A stretch of DNA of 64,000 nt, from assembly GCA_951813545.1 (NCBI GenBank), contig OX638352.1, positions 4,736,835 to 4,800,834 of the forward strand. Direction: 5' to 3'. The translations under genes were made by a program, and so were the position numbers. This stretch comes from an uncultured Poribacteria bacterium (GTDB lineage Bacteria > Poribacteria > WGA-4E > WGA-3G). A model generated the notes under the pieces. The model made no database searches, had not been told where the DNA came from, and saw nothing but the letters and a program-made list of their open reading frames with translations. Shown here in pieces: positions 39,889-49,988 of this stretch (positions within the stretch are counted from its first letter, which is position 1; each line of letters begins with the position of its first letter).

Positions 39889-42882
39889 ATGGAAACAACT
39901 CGGACACCAGAGGTAAACTTACGTCCCGGCGAACAACTTCACGGCTTTGAGGTGAAAGCCGTTACACCGATCGACGAATTGCGAGCAGTGACAATTGAAT
40001 TGGCACACCAACATAGCGGTGCCCGCCTGCTACATCTCTATACAAACGATACGGAAAATCTCTTCTCCATTAATTTCCCGACCCCGCCATCAGACGATAC
40101 CGGCGTACCCCATATTCTTGAACATGCTGTTTTGGCAGGCTCACACAAATTTCCGGTTAAAGAGCCCTTCTTTGAAATGATTAAAATGAGCATGGCAACA
40201 TTTATTAACGCCATGACAAGTGCCGATTTTACATGCTATCCGGTATCAAGCAACGTAAAAAAAGACCTTTTCAACTTGGCAGAAGTTTACTTTGACGCGG
40301 TCTTCCATCCACTACTGACCGAAAATACTTTCAAGCGTGAAGGACATCATCTCGCACCCGTCGATCCGGATGACCCTACAGGCGATTTAAAGATAACGGG
40401 TATCGTCTATAATGAGATGAAAGGCGCATTCTCAGATCCTGAAGCTCGGTTATATCGATCAATGACATGTCAACTCCTTCCAGATACGCTTTACGCATGT
40501 GAATCCGGCGGCGATCCAGATGCCATTCCGGATTTGACCTACGCGCAGCTCAAAGGATTTCATGAAACCTATTATCACCCAAGCAACGGCTATTTCGTTC
40601 TGTACGGGGACATTCCGACGAGCGACTATCTCACGTTCCTCGCCGATAAGTTAGATAAAATCCCAAAGAATGCTGCGAGTGCCTCTCTACGACCGCTAAG
40701 CCCGGAGGTCACACACCAACCGAAGTGGGATGCGCCACGGGCTGTAACGGATACCTACCCTGTCGGCGCAGATGAAGCACTCACAGAAAAAACATATATG
40801 ATGCTCAGTTGGTACATCGGAGAAGCGACCAAACCGGAAGCAGTTGTTTTAGGACGCATTTTGAGCCTTATACTGCTTGGCAATGAAGCCGCACCGCTCC
40901 GTAAAGCGATAATCGATTCCAAACTCGGTGCAGACCTCATCTATTCCGGTGCCAGTTCCATCGGACCCGCAGCTACTTTTCACGTTTCCCTCAAAGGGAG
41001 CGAAGTCGATCGCGTTGAAGCCTTCACACAACTCGTCACCGATACCCTAACAGCGATTGCGAATTCAGAGATTAATAACGAAAAGGTGGAAGCAGCGTTC
41101 CAACAAGCGACATACTATTACCAAGAAGTCGCTTCAATGTTCCCGCTCCGCATGCTCTACCGTGTCATTGAAGGCTGGATATATGAAAAAGATTCGGACA
41201 CCTTCCTAAAGATGGGAAAAACGCTGACTGATGTTCGTCAGCAGTGGCTGGAAAATCCATCAATTTTCAACGACTTCATCCGCGAGCATCTCATTGAGAA
41301 TCCACATCGTCTGACAAGTGTGTTGTCTCCTGATCAGGACATGCAGGCGAAAATGGATGCTGAACTCGCCGAACGGATGAAAGAGACACGGACACAACTC
41401 ACTGATGAAGAGGTACGGCAAATCGCCGCTGATGCTGCGGAACTCGAACGCCTCAACGGCGTCCCCAATTCGCCGGAAGCACTCGCAAATCTGCCACAAC
41501 TCCAAGTCAGCGATCTTCCCGATAAACCGAAACATTTTCCGAGAACAGTCGAAAATGTCGGTGGTCGGGATCTGCTCCGCAGCGATGTTTTTGCCAATGG
41601 TGTTAACTACCTTGTGCTCAACTTCAATTTACACGGGTTACCACAGCACCTCTGGACCTATCTACCCAGATATGCTGACGCTATTAGCAAACTCGGTGCC
41701 GCTGATATGAGTTATGAAGAGATGGCACAGCGGACATCTGCCGTCACCGGTGGTATTGGATGCTCACCGTGGTTTTCTACACACACACTCGATGCCAATC
41801 GTTCCATGCAGAGTATATCCTTTCACCTCAAAGCACTCGATGGGAAAATGGATGCCGCGCTCGATGTCTTGCACGATTTACTGTTTGCTGTGAACCCACG
41901 CGATACGGAACGCCTCCGGGACGTACTGGTTCAAGCGGTTGCAGAATATCAGACAGAAATGATCCACGACGGCTCAAGTACTGCGGTTCATCACGCTTCA
42001 CGTGGACTTTCGTCGAATGCGCATCTCGCCGAAATCATCTATGGTCTACCCCAACTCCGCAACAGCGAAACGCTCTTCAACGATTTTGACGAACTTCATA
42101 CCGACCTTATGGGTCATATAGAAGGAGTTCGCGATTTCCTGCTAACCCGTGAACGGGTGACCGCCAGCTTCACCGGTTCGGATACCGCTTTTGAAACGAC
42201 GCGAACCAAACTCGGTGAGTGGCTTGACGCGATGCGGAACGAGCCTGTTATTTCAGAACCGATTGCGTTCCAGCAGTTTGATACACCACCGAGAGAGGGA
42301 TTAGCCGGTCCCATTCAGATTGCGCATTGTGCGCATGTAATGCCGGCACCGCACTACTCCGATCCGGATTCAACGCTGCTGACGATCGGGGCGCATCTCA
42401 TTCGACTGGATTACATACTGAGTGAAATCCGCTTTAAAGGCAACGCTTATGGTGCCAGATTCAGCTATAGTCCTTATGACGCAGTCCTGTGTCAATCCTC
42501 GTATCGCGACCCACACGTCGCACGCACGATCAACGTCTTCGAGCAAACCGTTGATTACGTTAAACAGGTGGAATGGACACAAACAGACATAGACCGCGCG
42601 ATTATTGCTACGGCAAAAGATGGTGAGAAACCGATGCGTCCAGGTTTAGCTGCGAGAGAGGCACTGAGTCAACATCTTGTGGGGCAGACGCGCGAGATGC
42701 GAGAGGAACGCTACGCGCAACTCCGACGTGCCACCCCTGCTGAGGTGAAACGCGCGCTCCTTCAACTTTTAGAGGGAAACCGAGATAAAGCCGCGGTGTG
42801 TGCCGTTTCCAGTCGTGAAAAACTGGAAGCCGCAAACAGTGAATTAGCACAACCGCTTGTCATTGAGGATATTTTATCCTAA
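39889..42882 (+). CDS. M16C-family zinc metallopeptidase (PreP/pitrilysin-like)
   Basis: 997 aa. Inverted zinc motif HILEHAVLAGS (HxxEH) and downstream NEMKG glutamate. Length is typical of M16C. Confidence 0.8.
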   Translation: METTRTPEVNLRPGEQLHGFEVKAVTPIDELRAVTIELAHQHSGARLLHLYTNDTENLFSINFPTPPSDDTGVPHILEHAVLAGSHKFPVKEPFFEMIKMSMATFINAMTSADFTCYPVSSNVKKDLFNLAEVYFDAVFHPLLTENTFKREGHHLAPVDPDDPTGDLKITGIVYNEMKGAFSDPEARLYRSMTCQLLPDTLYACESGGDPDAIPDLTYAQLKGFHETYYHPSNGYFVLYGDIPTSDYLTFLADKLDKIPKNAASASLRPLSPEVTHQPKWDAPRAVTDTYPVGADEALTEKTYMMLSWYIGEATKPEAVVLGRILSLILLGNEAAPLRKAIIDSKLGADLIYSGASSIGPAATFHVSLKGSEVDRVEAFTQLVTDTLTAIANSEINNEKVEAAFQQATYYYQEVASMFPLRMLYRVIEGWIYEKDSDTFLKMGKTLTDVRQQWLENPSIFNDFIREHLIENPHRLTSVLSPDQDMQAKMDAELAERMKETRTQLTDEEVRQIAADAAELERLNGVPNSPEALANLPQLQVSDLPDKPKHFPRTVENVGGRDLLRSDVFANGVNYLVLNFNLHGLPQHLWTYLPRYADAISKLGAADMSYEEMAQRTSAVTGGIGCSPWFSTHTLDANRSMQSISFHLKALDGKMDAALDVLHDLLFAVNPRDTERLRDVLVQAVAEYQTEMIHDGSSTAVHHASRGLSSNAHLAEIIYGLPQLRNSETLFNDFDELHTDLMGHIEGVRDFLLTRERVTASFTGSDTAFETTRTKLGEWLDAMRNEPVISEPIAFQQFDTPPREGLAGPIQIAHCAHVMPAPHYSDPDSTLLTIGAHLIRLDYILSEIRFKGNAYGARFSYSPYDAVLCQSSYRDPHVARTINVFEQTVDYVKQVEWTQTDIDRAIIATAKDGEKPMRPGLAAREALSQHLVGQTREMREERYAQLRRATPAEVKRALLQLLEGNRDKAAVCAVSSREKLEAANSELAQPLVIEDILS

Positions 42883-42991
42883 CCTTGTTGCAGGCATGAT
42901 CTCTTTGTGCATAGACGCGCCTGCAAAGTACAACTGAAAGAAAAGGTAATTATAGAAATCCACGCTTACAACGAACACGAGAGGAATTAAA

Positions 42992-44344
42992 ATGATAAAA
43001 AAAATCGCAATTTTGACAATCTGTATCTTTGCTTTAGTGGCGGTTGCAACAATGGCATCACAGCCGGTCGGTTTTGAGAAGAACTGGCATCATTGGCGCG
43101 GACCGCATGCTACGGGTGCCGCAGCCGAAGCCAATCCGCCTACTACATGGAGCGAAACCGAGAACGTCCGCTGGAAAGTGGCTATCCCCGGCACGGGACA
43201 TGCCGCTCCAATTATCTGGGAGGACAAGATCTTCATCCAGACAGCAGTTAAGGGTGAAGCTGCCAAAGCGGAAGCCGAAGAATCAGATGATGATAATCCG
43301 TTCGGTGGCTTCTTTCAACAAAGGCGTGGGCGAGATGCAATTGAAAACTCTTATAAGTTTGACCTTCTCGCTATCAATCGAAATGACGGCAGTATTCTCT
43401 GGCAGAAGACACTGCGAGAGATAAACCCACATGAAGGCACACATCAAGATGCTACGTTCGCTTCAAACTCGCCGGTCACCGACGGTGAGCACATCTATGC
43501 CTATTTTGGTTCACGCGGGCTTTACTGTGTAGATATGATGGGCAATGTGAAGTGGGAAAAGGACATCGGCACGATGTATAAACGGAATACCTTCGGTGAA
43601 GGGAGTTCGCCTGTTCTTCACGGAAACACGCTTGTTATTGTACAGGACCATGAAGGTGATTCCTTTATCACGGCTCTTGACAAACGGACAGGCGATGTCT
43701 TGTGGAAGACCGCTCGCGATGAAAGAACGACTTGGTTTTCACCTATCGTTGTTGAACAGAATGGAAAAGCGCAGGTAATTACGACAGGCACCAATCGTGT
43801 TCGTAGTTACGATTTGGAGACTGGCGAACTTTTATGGGATGGCGACGGATTGACTGCGAATAGTATTCCTTCCCCTGTTGCTGCTGATGGGTTCGTTTAC
43901 CTGATGAGTGGCTTCCGGGGCAGTGAATTGCTGGCAGTTCAACTTGAAAAGGCGATGGGTGATATTACCGATTCCAGTGCCGTTGTCTGGGAACATAATC
44001 GTGATACACCCTATGTTCCTTCACCCCTCCTCTATGGGAATACACTCTATTTCTTGAAAAGCAATGATGGTATCCTCACTGCCTTCAATGTTGAGACAGG
44101 ACAAGCATATTATGGACCAGTACGGTTACAAGGCGTTTCTGGTGTCTACGCTTCAATTGTTGGGGCATCAGATCGCATCTACATCGCCGGACGGAACGGG
44201 ACGATCAACGTTCTCCAACACGGTCCCGAATTTAGTGTCATAGCGGAAAACACTCTGGATGATAGTTTCAACGCATCGCCCGCGATTGTCGGTTCAGAGT
44301 TATATCTCCGTGGCGGTCAGTATCTTTACTGCATTGCAGAGTAA
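42992..44344 (+). CDS. PQQ-like beta-propeller repeat protein, paralog
   Basis: Signal peptide. NWHHWRGPHATGAA N-terminus. Architecture parallels 37960..39270. Confidence 0.7.
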   Translation: MIKKIAILTICIFALVAVATMASQPVGFEKNWHHWRGPHATGAAAEANPPTTWSETENVRWKVAIPGTGHAAPIIWEDKIFIQTAVKGEAAKAEAEESDDDNPFGGFFQQRRGRDAIENSYKFDLLAINRNDGSILWQKTLREINPHEGTHQDATFASNSPVTDGEHIYAYFGSRGLYCVDMMGNVKWEKDIGTMYKRNTFGEGSSPVLHGNTLVIVQDHEGDSFITALDKRTGDVLWKTARDERTTWFSPIVVEQNGKAQVITTGTNRVRSYDLETGELLWDGDGLTANSIPSPVAADGFVYLMSGFRGSELLAVQLEKAMGDITDSSAVVWEHNRDTPYVPSPLLYGNTLYFLKSNDGILTAFNVETGQAYYGPVRLQGVSGVYASIVGASDRIYIAGRNGTINVLQHGPEFSVIAENTLDDSFNASPAIVGSELYLRGGQYLYCIAE

Positions 44345-44556: not shown

Positions 44557-45303
44557 CTAATATGTTGCTCTTCCACCGCTGACATCGTAGCACTGTCCCG
44601 TCACAAAGCTTGCCTCATCCGATGCCAAGAAATTCACGACCGCAGCAACTTCCTCTGGTTTCCCAACGCGTCCCAACGGAATCTTACCCACCATATAATC
44701 GATGGTTGATTGTGCCATACCTTCCAATATCGGTGTTTCGATGACCGCTGGAGACACTGCATTCACGCGGATGTTATAGTCCGTTACCTCTTTGGCGAGT
44801 GCCTTCGTTAGGCAGATAACCCCTGCTTTAGATACAGAATACGGGATGAGTGTCGGATTTCCCTCCTTGCCAGCGATTGAGGCGATGTTCACAATCCTGC
44901 CATAGTCCTGTGCGATCATGGGAGCGATCACCGCCTTACAACAGAGAAAAACACCTGTCAGGTTTACGCCTATCACGGTGTCCCAATCCGATTCTTCTAA
45001 GTCTGTCAATGGAAGCGTGCGTCCTGCAATTCCAGCGTTGTTGACGAGAATATCAACACGGCCGAAGGTGGAAATAACATTTTCGACAGCAGCGTTGACA
45101 TCGGTGGATACCGAAACATCTGCCTGAACGGGCAGTGCTTTGCGTCCCGTAGATTCAATCTCCTGCGCGACCGCTTCAGCTGCTGCTGCATTTAAATCCA
45201 TAATGGCGACATTCGCGCCTGCGTTCGCAAGTCTGATAGCAATCGCTTTACCGATACCCTGCCCCGCGCCTGTCACAATCGCAATTTTATCCGTTAGATT
45301 CAT
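44557..45303 (-). CDS. SDR-family oxidoreductase (FabG-like 3-oxoacyl reductase)
   Basis: Start refined to ATG 45303, with an AGGAGGG RBS 6 nt upstream. TGAGQGIGKAIAIRLANAGANV Rossmann motif. NNAG and catalytic SxnYxxxK (SKAGV) motifs. Confidence 0.85.
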   Translation of the reverse strand: MNLTDKIAIVTGAGQGIGKAIAIRLANAGANVAIMDLNAAAAEAVAQEIESTGRKALPVQADVSVSTDVNAAVENVISTFGRVDILVNNAGIAGRTLPLTDLEESDWDTVIGVNLTGVFLCCKAVIAPMIAQDYGRIVNIASIAGKEGNPTLIPYSVSKAGVICLTKALAKEVTDYNIRVNAVSPAVIETPILEGMAQSTIDYMVGKIPLGRVGKPEEVAAVVNFLASDEASFVTGQCYDVSGGRATY

Positions 45304-45859
45304 TAAAATCCCTCCTGAGTTCCAAAAAATCGTCCAGTTCAACGCCGAACGCGTCCGCGATCCGATTGATGTAGCTGAAAAAGCCAACGACCTCCACGAT
45401 AGCGAAGAGTGCTTCGTCGGTGAGTCCGTAGCTGCGAAGGTGTTCAAGGTCTGCTGGTGTAACAGTAGATGCTGCTTCTGTTACTTTAACGGCAAATTCA
45501 AGGATCGCTTTTGTGGTTTCGTCAATATCAGCCTTGTGAAAGTCAGTTACAATCTGGGCAATCTGCCCATCTGTGAGTTGTGCCCGCAACTCATCAGCAT
45601 GTGCGATTATTCAGTAGTGGCATTCGTTCACTTTCGAGACAACAGTTGCAATCATTTCACGCTGCATTCGGCTCAACGGGGAGTCCTCGTCAAACATTAT
45701 CGCTATGTAGAGTTCAATGAAAGGACGCATGCTTTTTGGTCGTACGCTGAGGAGTCTGACGATATTGTAAACTTGTCCCGCCCGCGCAATTGCCGCGTCG
45801 TATTCTTCTTTCACGATACCGGTTGCTTCGGCTTCGTCTACAGTGCGAATCCACGCCAT
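45287..45859 (-). CDS. AhpD/carboxymuconolactone-decarboxylase-family peroxidase-related protein with an in-frame TGA (candidate selenocysteine) at 45611..45613
   Basis: The ORF-track ORFs 45611..45859 and 45287..45589 are in the same frame and separated only by TGA. Read-through gives SKVNECHY-[TGA]-IIAHADE, which matches the AhpD catalytic N-x-C-x-x-C-x-x-x-H motif with TGA in place of the second Cys. Without read-through, the downstream half needs a TTG start and has no RBS. Confidence 0.6.
45571..45597 (-). other. Candidate bacterial SECIS-like hairpin 13 nt downstream of the in-frame UGA
   Basis: On the mRNA, CUGAUGAGUUG-CGGGCA-CAACUCACAG forms a 10-bp stem with a single U bulge and a 6-nt G-rich apical loop. 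Confidence 0.35.
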
Positions 45860-45862
45860 TTT

Positions 45863-47092
45863 TTACTCTCCAATTACGACACCGTATTCACCGACAACTG
45901 CGCCTTTGTGTCCGGTCTGGTAGTGTAGGTGTCTTTCACCGACGATAGGTTGTGTGCTTTGTACTTCTACTGTGCCGCGAACTTTCCCCATCGCTCCTTC
46001 ATCCATATCAACACAGCAGAACGGTTTAATTTGGCGATGCACTTGCTGCTTAATGTCCCCTTGTCGGTTGCGGACGATAACGTTGACAAAAGCATCTGCT
46101 TCTCCAACGTTAAGAAATCGGAACCAGTCCCAGGCACCCCCGGCAATTTCAGGGAAAAAGAGCCGGAGCCCAACTTGTCCTCCCTCAACCGATGCACCGG
46201 GTAGATCGATAATGGCTGTCCCACTATGCATGTGTCGTTCCGCGACAACCGGTTGATCGCTGCGTACCTCTACGGAGGATTTCACTTTAATGTCATCCAT
46301 AGGTGGTGTCCAGCACTCAAAAGGTCTCAGTTGATCGCGTTTTTTTGTCCACGTTGCTTGCGCATTGTCATCTTTACGTGCGATCATCGTTACTTCTGCA
46401 TCTTCTCTCCCGACGTTGACGATTACAACCCAATCTTGCCATGCAGGTCCGACTTCTGGCAAAAAGAGTGTGCGCGGCGCATCCGAAATCAACTGCCCAA
46501 ATTGCCCAACGGATGTCTTCCCTCCCTGATAGTGGAGATGGCGCTCTCCCACAATCGGTTGTGAACTTTGCATCTCAACCGTGCCGGTGACGTTCCCCAT
46601 AACACCTTCGTTGAGATCCCAACAGCAGAGGGGCTCAATAACGTGGTGTCGTTGCCTGATTACATCGCCGTTTCTGTTTCGGACGGTAATGTTGACGTGC
46701 GCATCCGCTTCACCGACGTTTAGGACCCGAAACCAATCGTGGGCACCGGAGACCAGTTCCGGAAAGAAGAGCCGCTGCCCGACTGTTCCATATTCCTCCG
46801 CTGCACCAATGAAATCAAGCACGTTCGTGTCCTTGTGCATGTGCCGTTCCGCCACAATCGGTTGATCTGCAGTGAACTGCATTGAGGAGTTCTCTTTAAT
46901 CTCTTCGACGTTCGGTATCCAGGACTCGAAGGAGCTTATTGTTTTCTCCGCAGACCAAGTCGGTTGTCCGTTACGGGCATGTCTCGCTATCGCAGTTACA
47001 CGGGTATCTTCAGGTCCCACATTCGTAACTTGGACCCAGTCTTGCCATTGGGGTCCCACTTCTGGAAAATAAAGGGTTGTTGCTCCTGGCAT
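45863..47092 (-). CDS. Hypothetical protein made of four tandem ~100-aa repeats of an unrecognised domain
   Basis: Each repeat carries LF(F/L)PE(V/L/I)..G..DW..(V/F)LNVGE.DA.V, (E/K)P(L/F)(C/E)C(W/V)D and Q(P)(I/V)(V)(G/A)ERH(L/M)H motifs. No signal peptide. 4-bp gap to the downstream AhpD-like gene. Confidence 0.5.
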   Translation of the reverse strand: MPGATTLYFPEVGPQWQDWVQVTNVGPEDTRVTAIARHARNGQPTWSAEKTISSFESWIPNVEEIKENSSMQFTADQPIVAERHMHKDTNVLDFIGAAEEYGTVGQRLFFPELVSGAHDWFRVLNVGEADAHVNITVRNRNGDVIRQRHHVIEPLCCWDLNEGVMGNVTGTVEMQSSQPIVGERHLHYQGGKTSVGQFGQLISDAPRTLFLPEVGPAWQDWVVIVNVGREDAEVTMIARKDDNAQATWTKKRDQLRPFECWTPPMDDIKVKSSVEVRSDQPVVAERHMHSGTAIIDLPGASVEGGQVGLRLFFPEIAGGAWDWFRFLNVGEADAFVNVIVRNRQGDIKQQVHRQIKPFCCVDMDEGAMGKVRGTVEVQSTQPIVGERHLHYQTGHKGAVVGEYGVVIGE

Positions 47093-47299: not shown

Positions 47300-47580
47300 T
47301 GGTTTGGGGATCCCTTCTACAGAAGGGATCGGGAATTGGAGTTCCTTCCTACAGAAGAGTCGGGAATCGGAGTTCCCTCCTACAGAAGAGTCGGGAATCG
47401 GAGTTCCCTCCTACAGAAGGGATCGGGAATTGGAGTTCCTTCCTACAGAAGAGTCGGGAATCGGAGTTCCCTCCTACAGAAGAGTCGGGAATCGGAGTTC
47501 CTTCCTACAGAAGAGTCGGGAATCGGAGTTCCCTCCTACAGAAGAGTCGGGAATCGGAGTTCCCTCCTACAGAAGAGATG
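47300..47580. repeat. Tandem array of about nine 31-bp repeats in a divergent promoter region
   Basis: Unit GGGAATCGGAGTTCCCTCCTACAGAAGAGTC, with variants GGGAATTGGAGTTCCTTCCTACAGAAGGGATC. Each unit has an internal dyad GGGAA-N6-TTCCC. A solo copy lies at 37241..37266. Confidence 0.85.
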
Positions 47581-47605: not shown

Positions 47606-47893
47606 ATGGCTGCGAAAAAACTTTCAGACGCTGAAATTCAGGAAAACCTTGAACAACTCAACGGTTGGACAGTGGAAGACGGTAAACTGCACAAGGAATA
47701 TCAGTTTGACACCTTTGTTACAGCCTTCGGTTTTATGACACAACTCGCCCTAATCGCGGAATCCATGAATCACCACCCCGAATGGTTTAACGTCTATAAC
47801 CGTGTGACAATTGATTTGATGACACACGATGCAGGTGGCATCAGTGAATTGGATTTTCAATGGGCAAAGCACGCGGATTCGATTAGTGGATAA
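47606..47893 (+). CDS. Pterin-4a-carbinolamine dehydratase (PCD/DCoH)
   Basis: 95 aa. EYQFDTFVTAFGFMTQLALIAESMNHHPEW is the classical PCD core. Confidence 0.85.
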   Translation: MAAKKLSDAEIQENLEQLNGWTVEDGKLHKEYQFDTFVTAFGFMTQLALIAESMNHHPEWFNVYNRVTIDLMTHDAGGISELDFQWAKHADSISG

Positions 47894-47941
47894 ACCGGTT
47901 TCTTGTAGATGGGGACGACATAATCCGCACTGGAGAGACGC

Positions 47942-48889
47942 ATGGATAAACTGAAAGTCTTAATTGGAAGTCGACAGGCACCAGAAATTGAGGGTATGCT
48001 GTCGGATGTCCCACCGGGTGTTGAGGTACGCTTTTTGCCACACGGTGAATCCTTGCGCGAACATATTGCTGACGTTGACATTTTGTTTGGACACCTTGGC
48101 GAAGATGCAATACCGGAAGCGACTGCGCTGCGTTGGGTGCACCAACCACACGCCGGTGTTGAAGGATTTATGTATCCTGCTTTCAAAGCGAGCGAGGTTA
48201 TACTCACCAACTGTCGTGGCTTGTACGGCACACAGATTGCAGAACACGCCTTCGCCCTACTTTTGTCCATCACCCGACGGATTCCTGACCAATTAGAATT
48301 TATGAAGACAAAGCATTGGGAGCGCGTTCCGTGTGTTGAAGTAGCGGGTATGACAATGGGCATCCTCGGATTAGGGGGCATCGGACGGGCGATTGCAGCA
48401 CGCGCACAGACGTTTGAATTTAATGTTATTGCTGCTGATGTAGAGCCGATTGACAAACCTGATACCGTGTCGGAACTCTTCGGTTTGGATGAATTAATGG
48501 CGTTTCTGGCGAAGTCGAACATCCTCATGGTATGTTGTCCGAGCACGCCTGAAACACATAAACTTCTATCACACGCACAGTTCAATCAGATGCCTGATGC
48601 CAGTTATGTCGTGAACGTCAGTCGTGGCAAGGTGATTGACGAAGAGGCGTTGATAGAAGCACTTCAGCGAGCGAAATTAGCAGGTGCGGGGTTGGACGTA
48701 ACGTATACGGAACCGTGTCCACCGGAAAGCCCGTTGTGGGAACAGCAGAATGTGATTTTAACTTCGCACAGCGCAGGTTCTTCGCAGCACATTCGGAGGC
48801 GTGCCATGCAACTTTTTATTGATAATCTGCATCTCTACGTGGAAGGTAAGCCTTTAGTCAATGTCGTTGATAAACAGAAGGGATACTAA
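47942..48889 (+). CDS. D-isomer-specific 2-hydroxyacid dehydrogenase family protein
   Basis: NAD-binding GILGLGGIGRAIAARA. Catalytic R/E/H context (NVSRG...HSAGSS). Confidence 0.8.
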   Translation: MDKLKVLIGSRQAPEIEGMLSDVPPGVEVRFLPHGESLREHIADVDILFGHLGEDAIPEATALRWVHQPHAGVEGFMYPAFKASEVILTNCRGLYGTQIAEHAFALLLSITRRIPDQLEFMKTKHWERVPCVEVAGMTMGILGLGGIGRAIAARAQTFEFNVIAADVEPIDKPDTVSELFGLDELMAFLAKSNILMVCCPSTPETHKLLSHAQFNQMPDASYVVNVSRGKVIDEEALIEALQRAKLAGAGLDVTYTEPCPPESPLWEQQNVILTSHSAGSSQHIRRRAMQLFIDNLHLYVEGKPLVNVVDKQKGY

Positions 48890-48914
48890 ATCACAACACA
48901 GAAATGGAGAGAAA

Positions 48915-49988
48915 ATGAGTCAGAAAACATATCGCGCCGCTGCCATCGGACATACCGGTGCCGGCAACTTTGGACATGGACTCCATACCCCATATAAAGA
49001 TATAGAGAACGTCGAATTTATCGCTGTCTCTGATCCGGATGAGGCTGGCAGAGAGAAGGCGGCAGCAGAAGCAGGAGCCTCGCGCAGCTACACCGATTAT
49101 CGGGATATGCTTGAGAAAGAGACGCTTGATCTTGTGAGTGTCTGCCCCCGCTGGACCTCGGAACATGTCGCTATGATAACCGCCTGTCTTGAGGCGGGAT
49201 GCAGCGTCTATTCCGAGAAACCGATGACGAGTACACTCGCAGACGGTGATAAGATTGTTGAGACAGCGGAAGCGCACGGTGTAAAGGTTGCTGTGGCGCA
49301 TCAGGCGGTCTATCTTCCTGCAACACACGCCATCAAGCAGATGCTTGACGATGGGAAAATTGGCACTATCCAAGCCATCTATGCCAGTGGTAAGCAAGAT
49401 AGGCGCGGCGGTGGTGAGGATATGATTGTCCTTGGCACGCACACGTTTAATATGATGCGTTTCTTCGTGGGTGATGTCGCATGGATGCAGTCACACGTCA
49501 CAACAAACGGCAAAGAGATTGCGTACGGTGACGACCATGAACCGACAGAACCTGTTGGACCGGTCGCGGGTGATTGCATTAACAGTTACTTCGCTTTCAA
49601 AAGCGGTGTCTCTGGATTTTTTCAGTCCCGGAGAGATCAGGCTGGCTCCGGCAGATACGGCATGGAAATTGTCGGTAGTGAAGGGACTTTCTCGCTCCGC
49701 GGTGATGTTGCGAACCGACTGATGGTCTATCCCTATCCGGTACTGGTGCCTGCAAATTCAGACCAAGAATGGGAAGCGATCGACTTAGACCAAACGCCTT
49801 TCTCCAGCGGCAATGAACTTGCTATCCGAGACCTTATCGACGCGATTGAGAATGACCGGAAACCGATTTCTGCTGCTGAAGACGCTGTCGCTGCATTAGA
49901 GATGATTCTCGGTGCTTATGAATCTCAATTGTCTGGCGGACGTGTCCCCTTCCCGATTGCGAACCGCGAGCACCCGTTAAGCAGATAA
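48915..49988 (+). CDS. Gfo/Idh/MocA-family oxidoreductase
   Basis: Start refined to ATG 48915, with a GGAGAG RBS. AAAIGHTGAGNFGHG Rossmann motif. The GFO_IDH_MocA C-terminal region follows. Confidence 0.8.
   Translation: MSQKTYRAAAIGHTGAGNFGHGLHTPYKDIENVEFIAVSDPDEAGREKAAAEAGASRSYTDYRDMLEKETLDLVSVCPRWTSEHVAMITACLEAGCSVYSEKPMTSTLADGDKIVETAEAHGVKVAVAHQAVYLPATHAIKQMLDDGKIGTIQAIYASGKQDRRGGGEDMIVLGTHTFNMMRFFVGDVAWMQSHVTTNGKEIAYGDDHEPTEPVGPVAGDCINSYFAFKSGVSGFFQSRRDQAGSGRYGMEIVGSEGTFSLRGDVANRLMVYPYPVLVPANSDQEWEAIDLDQTPFSSGNELAIRDLIDAIENDRKPISAAEDAVAALEMILGAYESQLSGGRVPFPIANREHPLSR

Follow-up and report, generated by a model that had tools for sequence, protein, structure and literature searches.

A predicted cytoplasmic tetrad of divergent ASRT/TM1070-type domains in Candidatus Poribacteria

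ASRT, the Anabaena sensory rhodopsin transducer and one of the two proteins closest in fold to the protein considered here, was reportedly first described as a binder of its rhodopsin. Together with Thermotoga TM1070 and the related DUF5719 proteins, it is placed in the ASRAH superfamily of De Souza, Iyer and Aravind (PMC2739507). This report concerns a gene of 409 codons in a 64,000-nt stretch of DNA (hereafter the window) from an uncultured Poribacteria bacterium (assembly GCA_951813545.1, contig OX638352.1, positions 4,736,835 to 4,800,834). The product of this repeat gene, the repeat protein, consists of four similar units, which are assigned here to the same superfamily.

In the ASRAH fold, two four-strand repeats make up a sandwich of eight strands, with a near-invariant asparagine closing strand 2 and a well-conserved tryptophan at the start of strand 1; strands 2, 5, 7 and 8 lie in one sheet (PMC2739507). 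Strand 2 lines its ligand cleft, whose wall is formed by a dimer interface. In TM1070 this cleft holds a bound diol, and strand 2 bears the ligand contacts H25 and C29 (PMC2739507). Members of the superfamily occur as solo intracellular tetramers, as secreted dyads and as secreted tetrads linked to an amidase (PMC2739507).

With ASRT and TM1070 the repeat protein shares the eight-stranded sandwich of ~100-115 residues (query TM-score, TMq, of 0.83 to 1nc7 and ~0.6 to ASRT), the invariant asparagine at the end of strand 2, the predicted cytoplasmic location and the four-domain stoichiometry, which is provided there by a homotetramer and in the repeat protein by four fused domains. In contrast to them, it shows only about 17% identity, which stays under the Pfam threshold, and carries its domains as A-B-A-B in one chain instead of as a solo domain. 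The strand-2 ligand histidine and cysteine of the SHEshChhN signature are replaced, and the strand-1 tryptophan is exchanged for leucine, isoleucine or tyrosine, whereas the repeat protein has an ERHxH motif of its own on strand 7 and extra invariant tryptophans. Its gene also lacks a conserved operon with sugar-kinase, isomerase or ABC-transporter genes.

DUF5719 (PF18986), known from amidase-associated tetrads and actinobacterial dyads (PMC2739507), is connected to the repeat protein by profile homology (E 1e-27 to 1e-12), by the motif skeleton (Y/F)F(A/P)E ... W ... N ... QPIV(A/G)ER and by the occurrence as dyads or tetrads. However, the repeat protein has no direct DUF5719 match at E<=1 and stands alone, with neither a signal peptide nor an enzymatic partner domain. 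In its family, ERPMY(F) has become ERH(L/M/C)H(Y), NP has become NV and SR-T has become (P)F-x-W. Beta-sandwich carbohydrate-binding modules (CBMs), such as those of Ruminococcus flavefaciens (5fu2/5aos) and CBM4, resemble the repeat domain in general sandwich shape and in a predicted ligand site on one sheet face (TMq 0.48-0.55), but the structural match is far weaker, and the CBMs differ by a circular permutation and by use of the opposite face (PMC2739507). The model comparison gives no evidence of homology between CBMs and the repeat domain.

Domain identity and four-unit architecture

The open reading frame (ORF) runs from ATG to TAA on the minus strand and is preceded by a Shine-Dalgarno sequence, AGGAGG, 6 nt ahead of the start codon (Table 1). 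Among 5.8 billion clustered proteins, 152 homologues were found at 41-94% identity, nearly all of them 408-419 aa long and all either unnamed or labelled 'hypothetical protein [Candidatus Poribacteria bacterium]'. The AlphaFold2 model of the full-length protein, built on a 38-sequence alignment, is all-beta, with a predicted local distance difference test (pLDDT) score of 93.7, a predicted TM-score (pTM) of 0.91 and a pLDDT >=83 in every 10-residue block over the 409 residues. Because about 150 homologues of near-constant length are accompanied by so confident a model, the repeat gene is real, well conserved and far beyond what chance would produce. The four-domain family appears to be restricted to Candidatus Poribacteria.

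Self-comparison of the repeat protein peaks at an offset of 203 aa (88/206 identities), and units 1 and 2 match each other in BLASTP (E=5e-14, 35% identity). A unit hidden Markov model (HMM) recovers four full domains, each at E~1e-35, and finds no second copy of the domain in the 64-kb window. Units 1/3 and 2/4 are the closest pairs, which gives the pattern A-B-A-B, and the linkers between the units are short and conserved among the aligned homologues. Three complete homologues of 203-209 aa (P0121, P0122 and P0123) contain only two units, A-B, with the ERHCH / ERHLHY motifs and the C-terminal GQLGQVLD of the family; these two-unit proteins are possibly the ancestral dyad form.

When a single unit (unit 2) was modelled alone with AlphaFold, eight strands were obtained at a pLDDT of 89.9. 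In Foldseek, this model matches 1nc7 (TM1070) with a TMq of 0.83-0.84, a root-mean-square deviation (rmsd) of 2.4 A and a probability of 1.00, followed by all ASRT entries (2ii7/8/9/a) at a TMq of ~0.6. No match other than ASRT or TM1070 reaches E<=0.001, and the best other folds, FlgD and the Ruminococcus CBMs, remain at a TMq of 0.42-0.55. With the full-length model, 1nc7 is the only clean single-domain match. The proteins at the top of that search, i.e., complement C3/C4/C5, the MG domains of alpha-2-macroglobulin and transglutaminase-2, were dismissed as generic strings of sandwiches (TM <=0.16, rmsd >20 A).

Profile searches lead to the same superfamily. When the family profile was run with HMMER against all 1.84 billion cluster representatives, 886 of them matched at E<=1e-3. 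Ranked below the ~410-aa family and the 203-209-aa two-unit proteins are hundreds of multidomain proteins of 500-2800 aa (E 1e-27 to 1e-12), which contain fused Amidase_2, PKD, Big_7, SBBP and Y_Y_Y domains and whose matched regions are recognised in Pfam as DUF5719 (E down to 4e-28, up to 98.8 bits) and ASRT (E down to 2e-11). The sequence link between the repeat protein and DUF5719 is only transitive, via these multidomain relatives. The fold match to TM1070/ASRT together with this transitive profile homology places the repeat, on sequence and model grounds, in ASRAH as a divergent ASRT/TM1070-type, DUF5719-related beta-sandwich; the domain is not novel. In line with this assignment, the units have the eight-stranded sandwich of ~100-120 residues with the TM1070 fold and the nearly absolute asparagine at the end of strand 2, and they occur as tetrads (four domains per chain) or as dyads (the 203-209-aa homologues). 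The strand-2 signature of PF07100, SHEshChhN, is not reproduced, and the family sequence x-x-D-W-h-x-h-h-N keeps its asparagine and an acidic residue at the glutamate position.

Curated models miss the family, as no match above threshold was obtained in Pfam or NCBIfam for the repeat protein or five homologues. The best sub-threshold Pfam match is to PF07100 (ASRT), with E=0.056 and 13.9 bits compared with a gathering threshold of 25, over residues 117-154 only; the second is to DUF3237 (E=0.15). Two further matches were rejected: PCNA in the PDB profile search (E=0.038) was judged a chance match, and a YnhH-like match on P0049 (26.5 bits vs 27, 36 residues only) was judged spurious. A literature search on DUF5719 found no paper.

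A preliminary description of this locus, made from the letters of the DNA, had proposed a 409-aa product of four tandem ~100-aa units, and both the ORF and the repeat structure (by self-match, BLASTP and unit HMM) bear it out. It had further considered the repeat domain novel and unrecognised, which is true of the curated models but not of profile and fold comparisons, by which the superfamily is known; the structure prediction of a single repeat, which it had proposed as a check, produced the confident match to 1nc7 (TM1070) and hence a known family. The formerly unplaced repeat now represents a phylum-restricted, uncharacterised ASRAH (ASRT/TM1070) branch missed by Pfam and NCBIfam. What is new is not the domain superfamily, which was already known, but a standalone intracellular tetrad that is restricted to one phylum, has its own signature and lies outside existing family models. 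As far as found, it is the first intracellular standalone single-chain ASRAH tetrad. A family model can be built from the full-length (A2) and single-unit (A3) alignments.

Table 1. Positions, in window coordinates, of the repeat gene, its units and motifs, and the two genes downstream
Feature	Position	Strand	Basis or remark
Gene for the four-domain ASRAH (ASRT/TM1070-like) protein, stop included	45863..47092	minus	ORF, homologues, AlphaFold2 model, Shine-Dalgarno
Unit 1 (type A), residues 1-105	46778..47092	minus	Unit comparison, model, unit HMM
Unit 2 (type B), residues 106-206	46475..46777	minus	Modelled alone: eight-stranded sandwich; 1nc7 match
Unit 3 (type A), residues 207-308	46169..46474	minus	Unit comparison, unit HMM
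Unit 4 (type B), residues 309-409	45866..46168	minus	Unit comparison, unit HMM
ERHMH of unit 1, E82-H86, strand 7 of domain	46835..46849	minus	E, R, H 38/38; second H 37/38
ERHLH of unit 2, E183-H187	46532..46546	minus	Motif search, conservation count
ERHMH of unit 3, E285-H289	46226..46240	minus	Motif search, conservation count
ERHLH of unit 4, E386-H390	45923..45937	minus	Motif search, conservation count
Cys156-Cys157, unit 2	46622..46627	minus	C in 12/38 and 11/38; not family-conserved
Cys359-Cys360, unit 4	46013..46018	minus	C in 9/38 and 13/38; not family-conserved
AhpD/CMD-like 'peroxidase-related' gene, in-frame TGA (C-H-Y-U)	45287..45859	minus	Library matches; TGA at same codon in 53/53 species
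Short-chain dehydrogenase/reductase (SDR, FabG-like)	44557..45303	minus	Library match; follows repeat gene in 79/80 clade members

Conserved motifs and the predicted ligand site

L(F/Y)(F/L)PE, DW, NVG and QP(I/V)V(G/A)ERH(L/M)H are common to all four units. When conservation was counted over 38 diverse aligned homologues, the Glu, Arg and first His of ERHxH were found in 38/38 sequences in each of the four units and the second His in 35-37/38. The asparagines that end strand 2 (N24, N125, N226 and N328) are likewise present in 38/38 each, and a family-specific tryptophan on strand 5 is near-invariant (W58 35/38, W158 35/38, W261 38/38).

For comparison, a superfamily skeleton was derived from 352 domains of distant relatives aligned to the unit HMM. 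It reads W-Y-F-A-E-G ... G-F-x-E-W ... I-Q-N-P ... A-x-V-x-V-T-Y ... G ... S-R-x-T-V ... V-S ... S-D-Q-P-I-V-A-E-R-P-M-Y-F, and asparagine occupies the same HMM position in 99% of these domains. The Poribacteria family retains (F/Y)F(P/A)(E/Q), the tryptophan of 'DW', the asparagine and QPIV(G/A)ER, while the ERPMY of DUF5719-type relatives corresponds to ERHxH, with the proline and tyrosine swapped for two histidines. Since QPIV(A/G)ER is part of the skeleton in distant relatives, the alignments mark the Glu and Arg of ERHxH as superfamily-wide, and only the two histidines as family-specific.

The paired cysteines behave differently from ERHxH. They are confined to units 2 and 4, the corresponding residues being ECW in unit 3 and ESW in unit 1, and homologues that lack cysteine at these positions have G-F, G-W or G-Y instead. 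Because cysteine is found in only 9-13/38 homologues, the Cys-Cys pair is, by this count, a clade-specific feature and cannot be the functional core of the family; the conserved pair that a redox CxxC/CC or metal-thiolate class would call for is not seen (12, 11, 9 and 13 of 38). The first description had assigned LFFPE, DW, NVG, ERH(L/M)H and CC(W/V)D motifs to every unit. All but the last are there, in slightly variable form, and CC(W/V)D is limited to units 2 and 4; with it, the suggestion that the paired cysteines point to metal or redox chemistry is withdrawn.

All of the 38 aligned homologues begin 3-7 residues ahead of strand 1, which in the model starts at residue 6. As this N-terminus is too short for a signal peptide, the repeat protein is predicted to be cytoplasmic; in this it agrees with ASRT and TM1070 but not with most DUF5719 proteins. 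The pTM over four domains and the short, conserved linkers imply that the domains are held in a fixed compact arrangement in the model. Together with the solo tetramers of the superfamily and the two-unit homologues, these features suggest a single-chain pseudo-tetramer that would be a dimer of A-B dyads and that, when closed, could offer up to four ligand pockets. According to the strand order of the unit model and the published sheet assignment (PMC2739507), the tryptophan of the strand-2 'DW', the strand-5 tryptophan and the strand-7 Glu/His/His (i, i+2, i+4) would all be placed on the pocket-bearing sheet, which corresponds to that of the TM1070 cleft.

The most likely function of the repeat protein, with a probability of roughly 0.6, is the binding or sensing of a small ligand by a cytoplasmic pseudo-tetramer of four ASRAH domains. 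The ligand would most likely be a sugar or sugar derivative, whose binding possibly involves a metal ion on the Glu/His/His face, either as a bridge or alongside the ligand, and the sequence of the E-x-H-x-H face possibly indicates a metal-binding role. On this reading, the protein would be a soluble binding or sensing protein, not a redox enzyme. Sugar-type enzymes (GFO/IDH/MocA, SIS_2, AP_endonuc_2, SDR, Wzy_C and FGE-sulfatase) are encoded near the repeat gene in several lineages, but they support a sugar ligand only weakly, since these genomes are rich in genes of this kind.

Several points weigh against this reading. Sugar or small-molecule binding by ASRAH domains is itself a prediction only (PMC2739507). 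Direct sequence comparison yields no match above a curated threshold to ASRT, TM1070 or DUF5719, PF18986 (gathering threshold 26.2 bits) gives no match at E<=1 for the repeat protein and five homologues, and neither the full-length nor the single-unit alignment, used as a profile against PDB sequences, finds anything relevant. The strand-1 tryptophan of ASRAH is replaced by L/I/Y in the Poribacteria family (consensus RLFFPE / TLYFPE); in distant relatives this position is W in 44%, F in 21% and L in 16%, and the Poribacteria family keeps a hydrophobic residue. Nor does the family conserve the His and Cys by which TM1070 contacts its ligand, so the ligand of TM1070 is not transferable to the repeat family. 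Both the geometry of the pseudo-tetramer and the clustering of Trp, Glu, His and His are predictions. Finally, no family-wide conserved operon that would point to a ligand or partner was found in the contexts sampled.

It is rather unlikely that the repeat protein is instead a structural or scaffold protein, i.e., a cytoplasmic array of sandwiches that mediates protein-protein contacts, has no small ligand and uses its conserved polar residues as interface contacts. Such a role would fit the conservation of the motif Glu and Arg throughout the superfamily, including secreted multidomain proteins, as well as the highly conserved inter-domain linkers, the pTM of 0.91, which implies fixed interfaces, and the lack of a conserved metabolic operon. 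It would not explain so readily why proline and tyrosine have given way to two histidines in all four units, an exchange that is kept from 41% to 94% identity and is more typical of a binding site. Two invariant tryptophans on the same sheet and the real cleft with its bound diol in TM1070 (PMC2739507) also speak for a pocket.

If the repeat protein is a small-ligand-binding pseudo-tetramer, it would constitute a natural 'fused tetramer', convenient for testing the predicted binding of sugars or small molecules at dimer interfaces. The repeat gene is nearly universal in Poribacteria, which are major sponge symbionts without a cultured representative, and its ligand may inform on symbiont physiology.

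The AhpD-like gene and the genomic neighbourhood

The repeat gene is followed by the AhpD-like gene and the SDR gene (Table 1). Its stop codon is separated from the AhpD-like ATG by 3 nt (TAA-AAA-ATG), GGAG lies inside its 3' end ahead of the AhpD-like start, and no terminator-like site was found between the two genes. The SDR has the same orientation, and its start shares 17 nt with the 3' end of the AhpD-like gene. The AhpD-like protein matches TIGR01926 (E=8e-46) and is related to NF041238, the 'AhpD_rel_CFYUT (seleno)protein'; its TGA stands in the context NECHY-U-IIAH and is directly followed, on the 3' side of the UGA, by a hairpin of -22 kcal/mol (z=-2.8). The presence of the TGA at the same codon in 53/53 species, together with the hairpin after it, gives good support for a genuine selenocysteine (Sec) codon.

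The conservation of this arrangement was assessed in one genome per GTDB species for the best 80 of 150 relatives (74-94% identity; loci L017-L096), all of which are metagenome-assembled genomes of Candidatus Poribacteria from the sponge-symbiont clade. The SDR is found downstream of the repeat gene in 79/80 species, and a divergent pterin-4a-carbinolamine dehydratase gene upstream in about 78/80. An intact AhpD-like gene, usually with the same 3-nt junction, lies between repeat gene and SDR in 53/80 species. The remaining 27 species retain the repeat gene, with remnants of 25-93 aa of the AhpD-like gene in 8 and nothing in 19. The gene orders point to repeated and independent loss of the AhpD-like gene in the sponge clade, for which the repeat gene/AhpD-like/SDR trio is, on this comparison, ancestral and the AhpD-like gene dispensable. 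Recent insertion of the AhpD-like gene, an idea taken from the P0012, P0013 and P0037 contexts, was overturned by the 80-species scan (53/8/19). The AhpD-like remnants (25-93 aa of similarity) are located at L045, L059, L062, L069, L071, L073, L081 and L084, and also at L015; in the 19 species, the junction between repeat gene and SDR is clean and carries no AhpD-like trace. Next to the distant members (41-67% identity), the AhpD-like gene is absent in all eight contexts sampled, and in the contexts sampled outside the sponge clade none of the SDR, AhpD-like and pterin dehydratase neighbours is present.

Of the linkage proposed in the preliminary description, the probably co-transcribed trio co-oriented with the SDR agrees with the tight layout and with the recurrence of the same junction and TGA in 53/80 species, while the gap to the AhpD-like gene had been given as 4 bp instead of the measured 3 nt. 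The co-occurrence with AhpD-like genes that was to be checked is observed in 53/80 sponge-clade species, but the gene is lost or decayed in 27 and absent beside distant members. Two outcomes had been named as speaking against that account, a confident match to a known family and a lack of conserved linkage to the AhpD-like gene: the first was found, and the second applies family-wide but not within the sponge-symbiont clade. The paired-cysteine redox hypothesis is removed, and the selenoprotein linkage emerges as an ancestral synteny of one clade, which that clade can dispense with.

These data bear on a second alternative, by which the repeat protein would be a metal- or redox-active partner of the AhpD-like selenoprotein and the SDR, serving as substrate carrier, metallochaperone or electron partner. 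Its basis is the 3-nt junction with GGAG inside the repeat gene and no terminator-like site in between, the gene order kept in 53/80 species with the TGA at the same codon in 53/53, and the invariant histidine pairs of ERHxH. When E-x-H-x-H lines one face of a beta-strand, its geometry is able to hold a metal, as in HxH sites. This alternative is nevertheless decidedly improbable, given that Cys-Cys occurs in only 9-13/38 homologues and that the AhpD-like gene is decayed in 8 and gone in 19 species in which the repeat gene and SDR are intact. Moreover, members at 41-67% identity keep every ERHxH in entirely different gene surroundings (ZapA, URO-D, Wzy_C, the rpsF operon, an ion channel), and the fold is a predicted ligand-binding module, not a known redox protein. 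As ERHxH is invariant in distant members without an AhpD-like gene, its role is therefore independent of the selenoprotein.

More speculative, and of still lower probability, is a variant in which a new ASRAH branch has turned its four clefts into Glu/His/His (+Trp) sites for a metal or metallo-ligand that serve the translationally coupled, Sec-containing AhpD-like protein and the SDR in sponge symbionts. The repeat protein would then, for example, sense a metal or a substrate in the form of an oxidised sugar or lipid, or deliver it to a module that detoxifies peroxide with the help of selenium. A role as a glycan-binding protein that is secreted or displayed on the cell surface, as most of the amidase-, PKD- or Ig-fused DUF5719-type relatives would suggest, is highly improbable: although the large multidomain proteins that come nearest to it in sequence outside the family carry cell-wall amidase, PKD and Big domains, the repeat protein has no N-terminal signal or lipobox (strand 1 from residue 6, with a common start in the homologues) and no fused enzymatic or anchoring domains, and the structurally closest TM1070 and ASRT belong to the intracellular branch (PMC2739507).

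No family-wide conserved neighbour of the repeat gene was found, and the contexts of the distant members are diverse. SIS_2, Wzy_C and GDSL genes accompany P0044 (63% identity), whereas P0053 (44%) has a tandem paralogue (49% identical), an FGE-sulfatase gene and the rpsF-ssb-rpsR-rplI-dnaB cluster. P0091 (~44%) has ZapA upstream and a 220-aa gene without an assigned family downstream, P0073 (~44%) is found with PHP and PorP_SprF, and P0120 (~41%) with GFO/IDH/MocA and FAD oxidoreductase genes. A URO-D family gene (PF01208) is located directly downstream of P0055 and P0104 (42-49% identity), with a gap of 2 nt in the former (L097 5254-6309) and of 74 nt in the latter (L099 5323-6303); URO-D is thereby shared by two distant members, and no other neighbour recurs beyond the sponge clade.

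Some marine Poribacteria-like contigs (L001 5001-7705; L002, L003) contain tandem four-domain paralogues of 419 and 411 aa, which are 49% identical and sit directly upstream of rpsF-ssb-rpsR-rplI-dnaB. In the window, the wider surroundings at 39889-44344 and 47606-49988 comprise genes for a PreP/M16C-type peptidase (997 aa), a PQQ-like (pyrroloquinoline quinone) beta-propeller protein (450 aa), the pterin-4a-carbinolamine dehydratase, a 2-hydroxyacid dehydrogenase and a GFO/IDH/MocA oxidoreductase. This order recurs in close Poribacteria relatives and so confirms where the window comes from. The intergenic region between the divergent repeat gene and pterin-4a-carbinolamine dehydratase gene contains a tandem array at 47311-47577, in which a 31-nt unit is repeated in 8.5 copies with 93% matches (consensus TCCCTCCTACAGAAGAGTCGGGAATCGGAGT); the same array also reads as 94 nt x 2.9 and creates several spurious ORFs.

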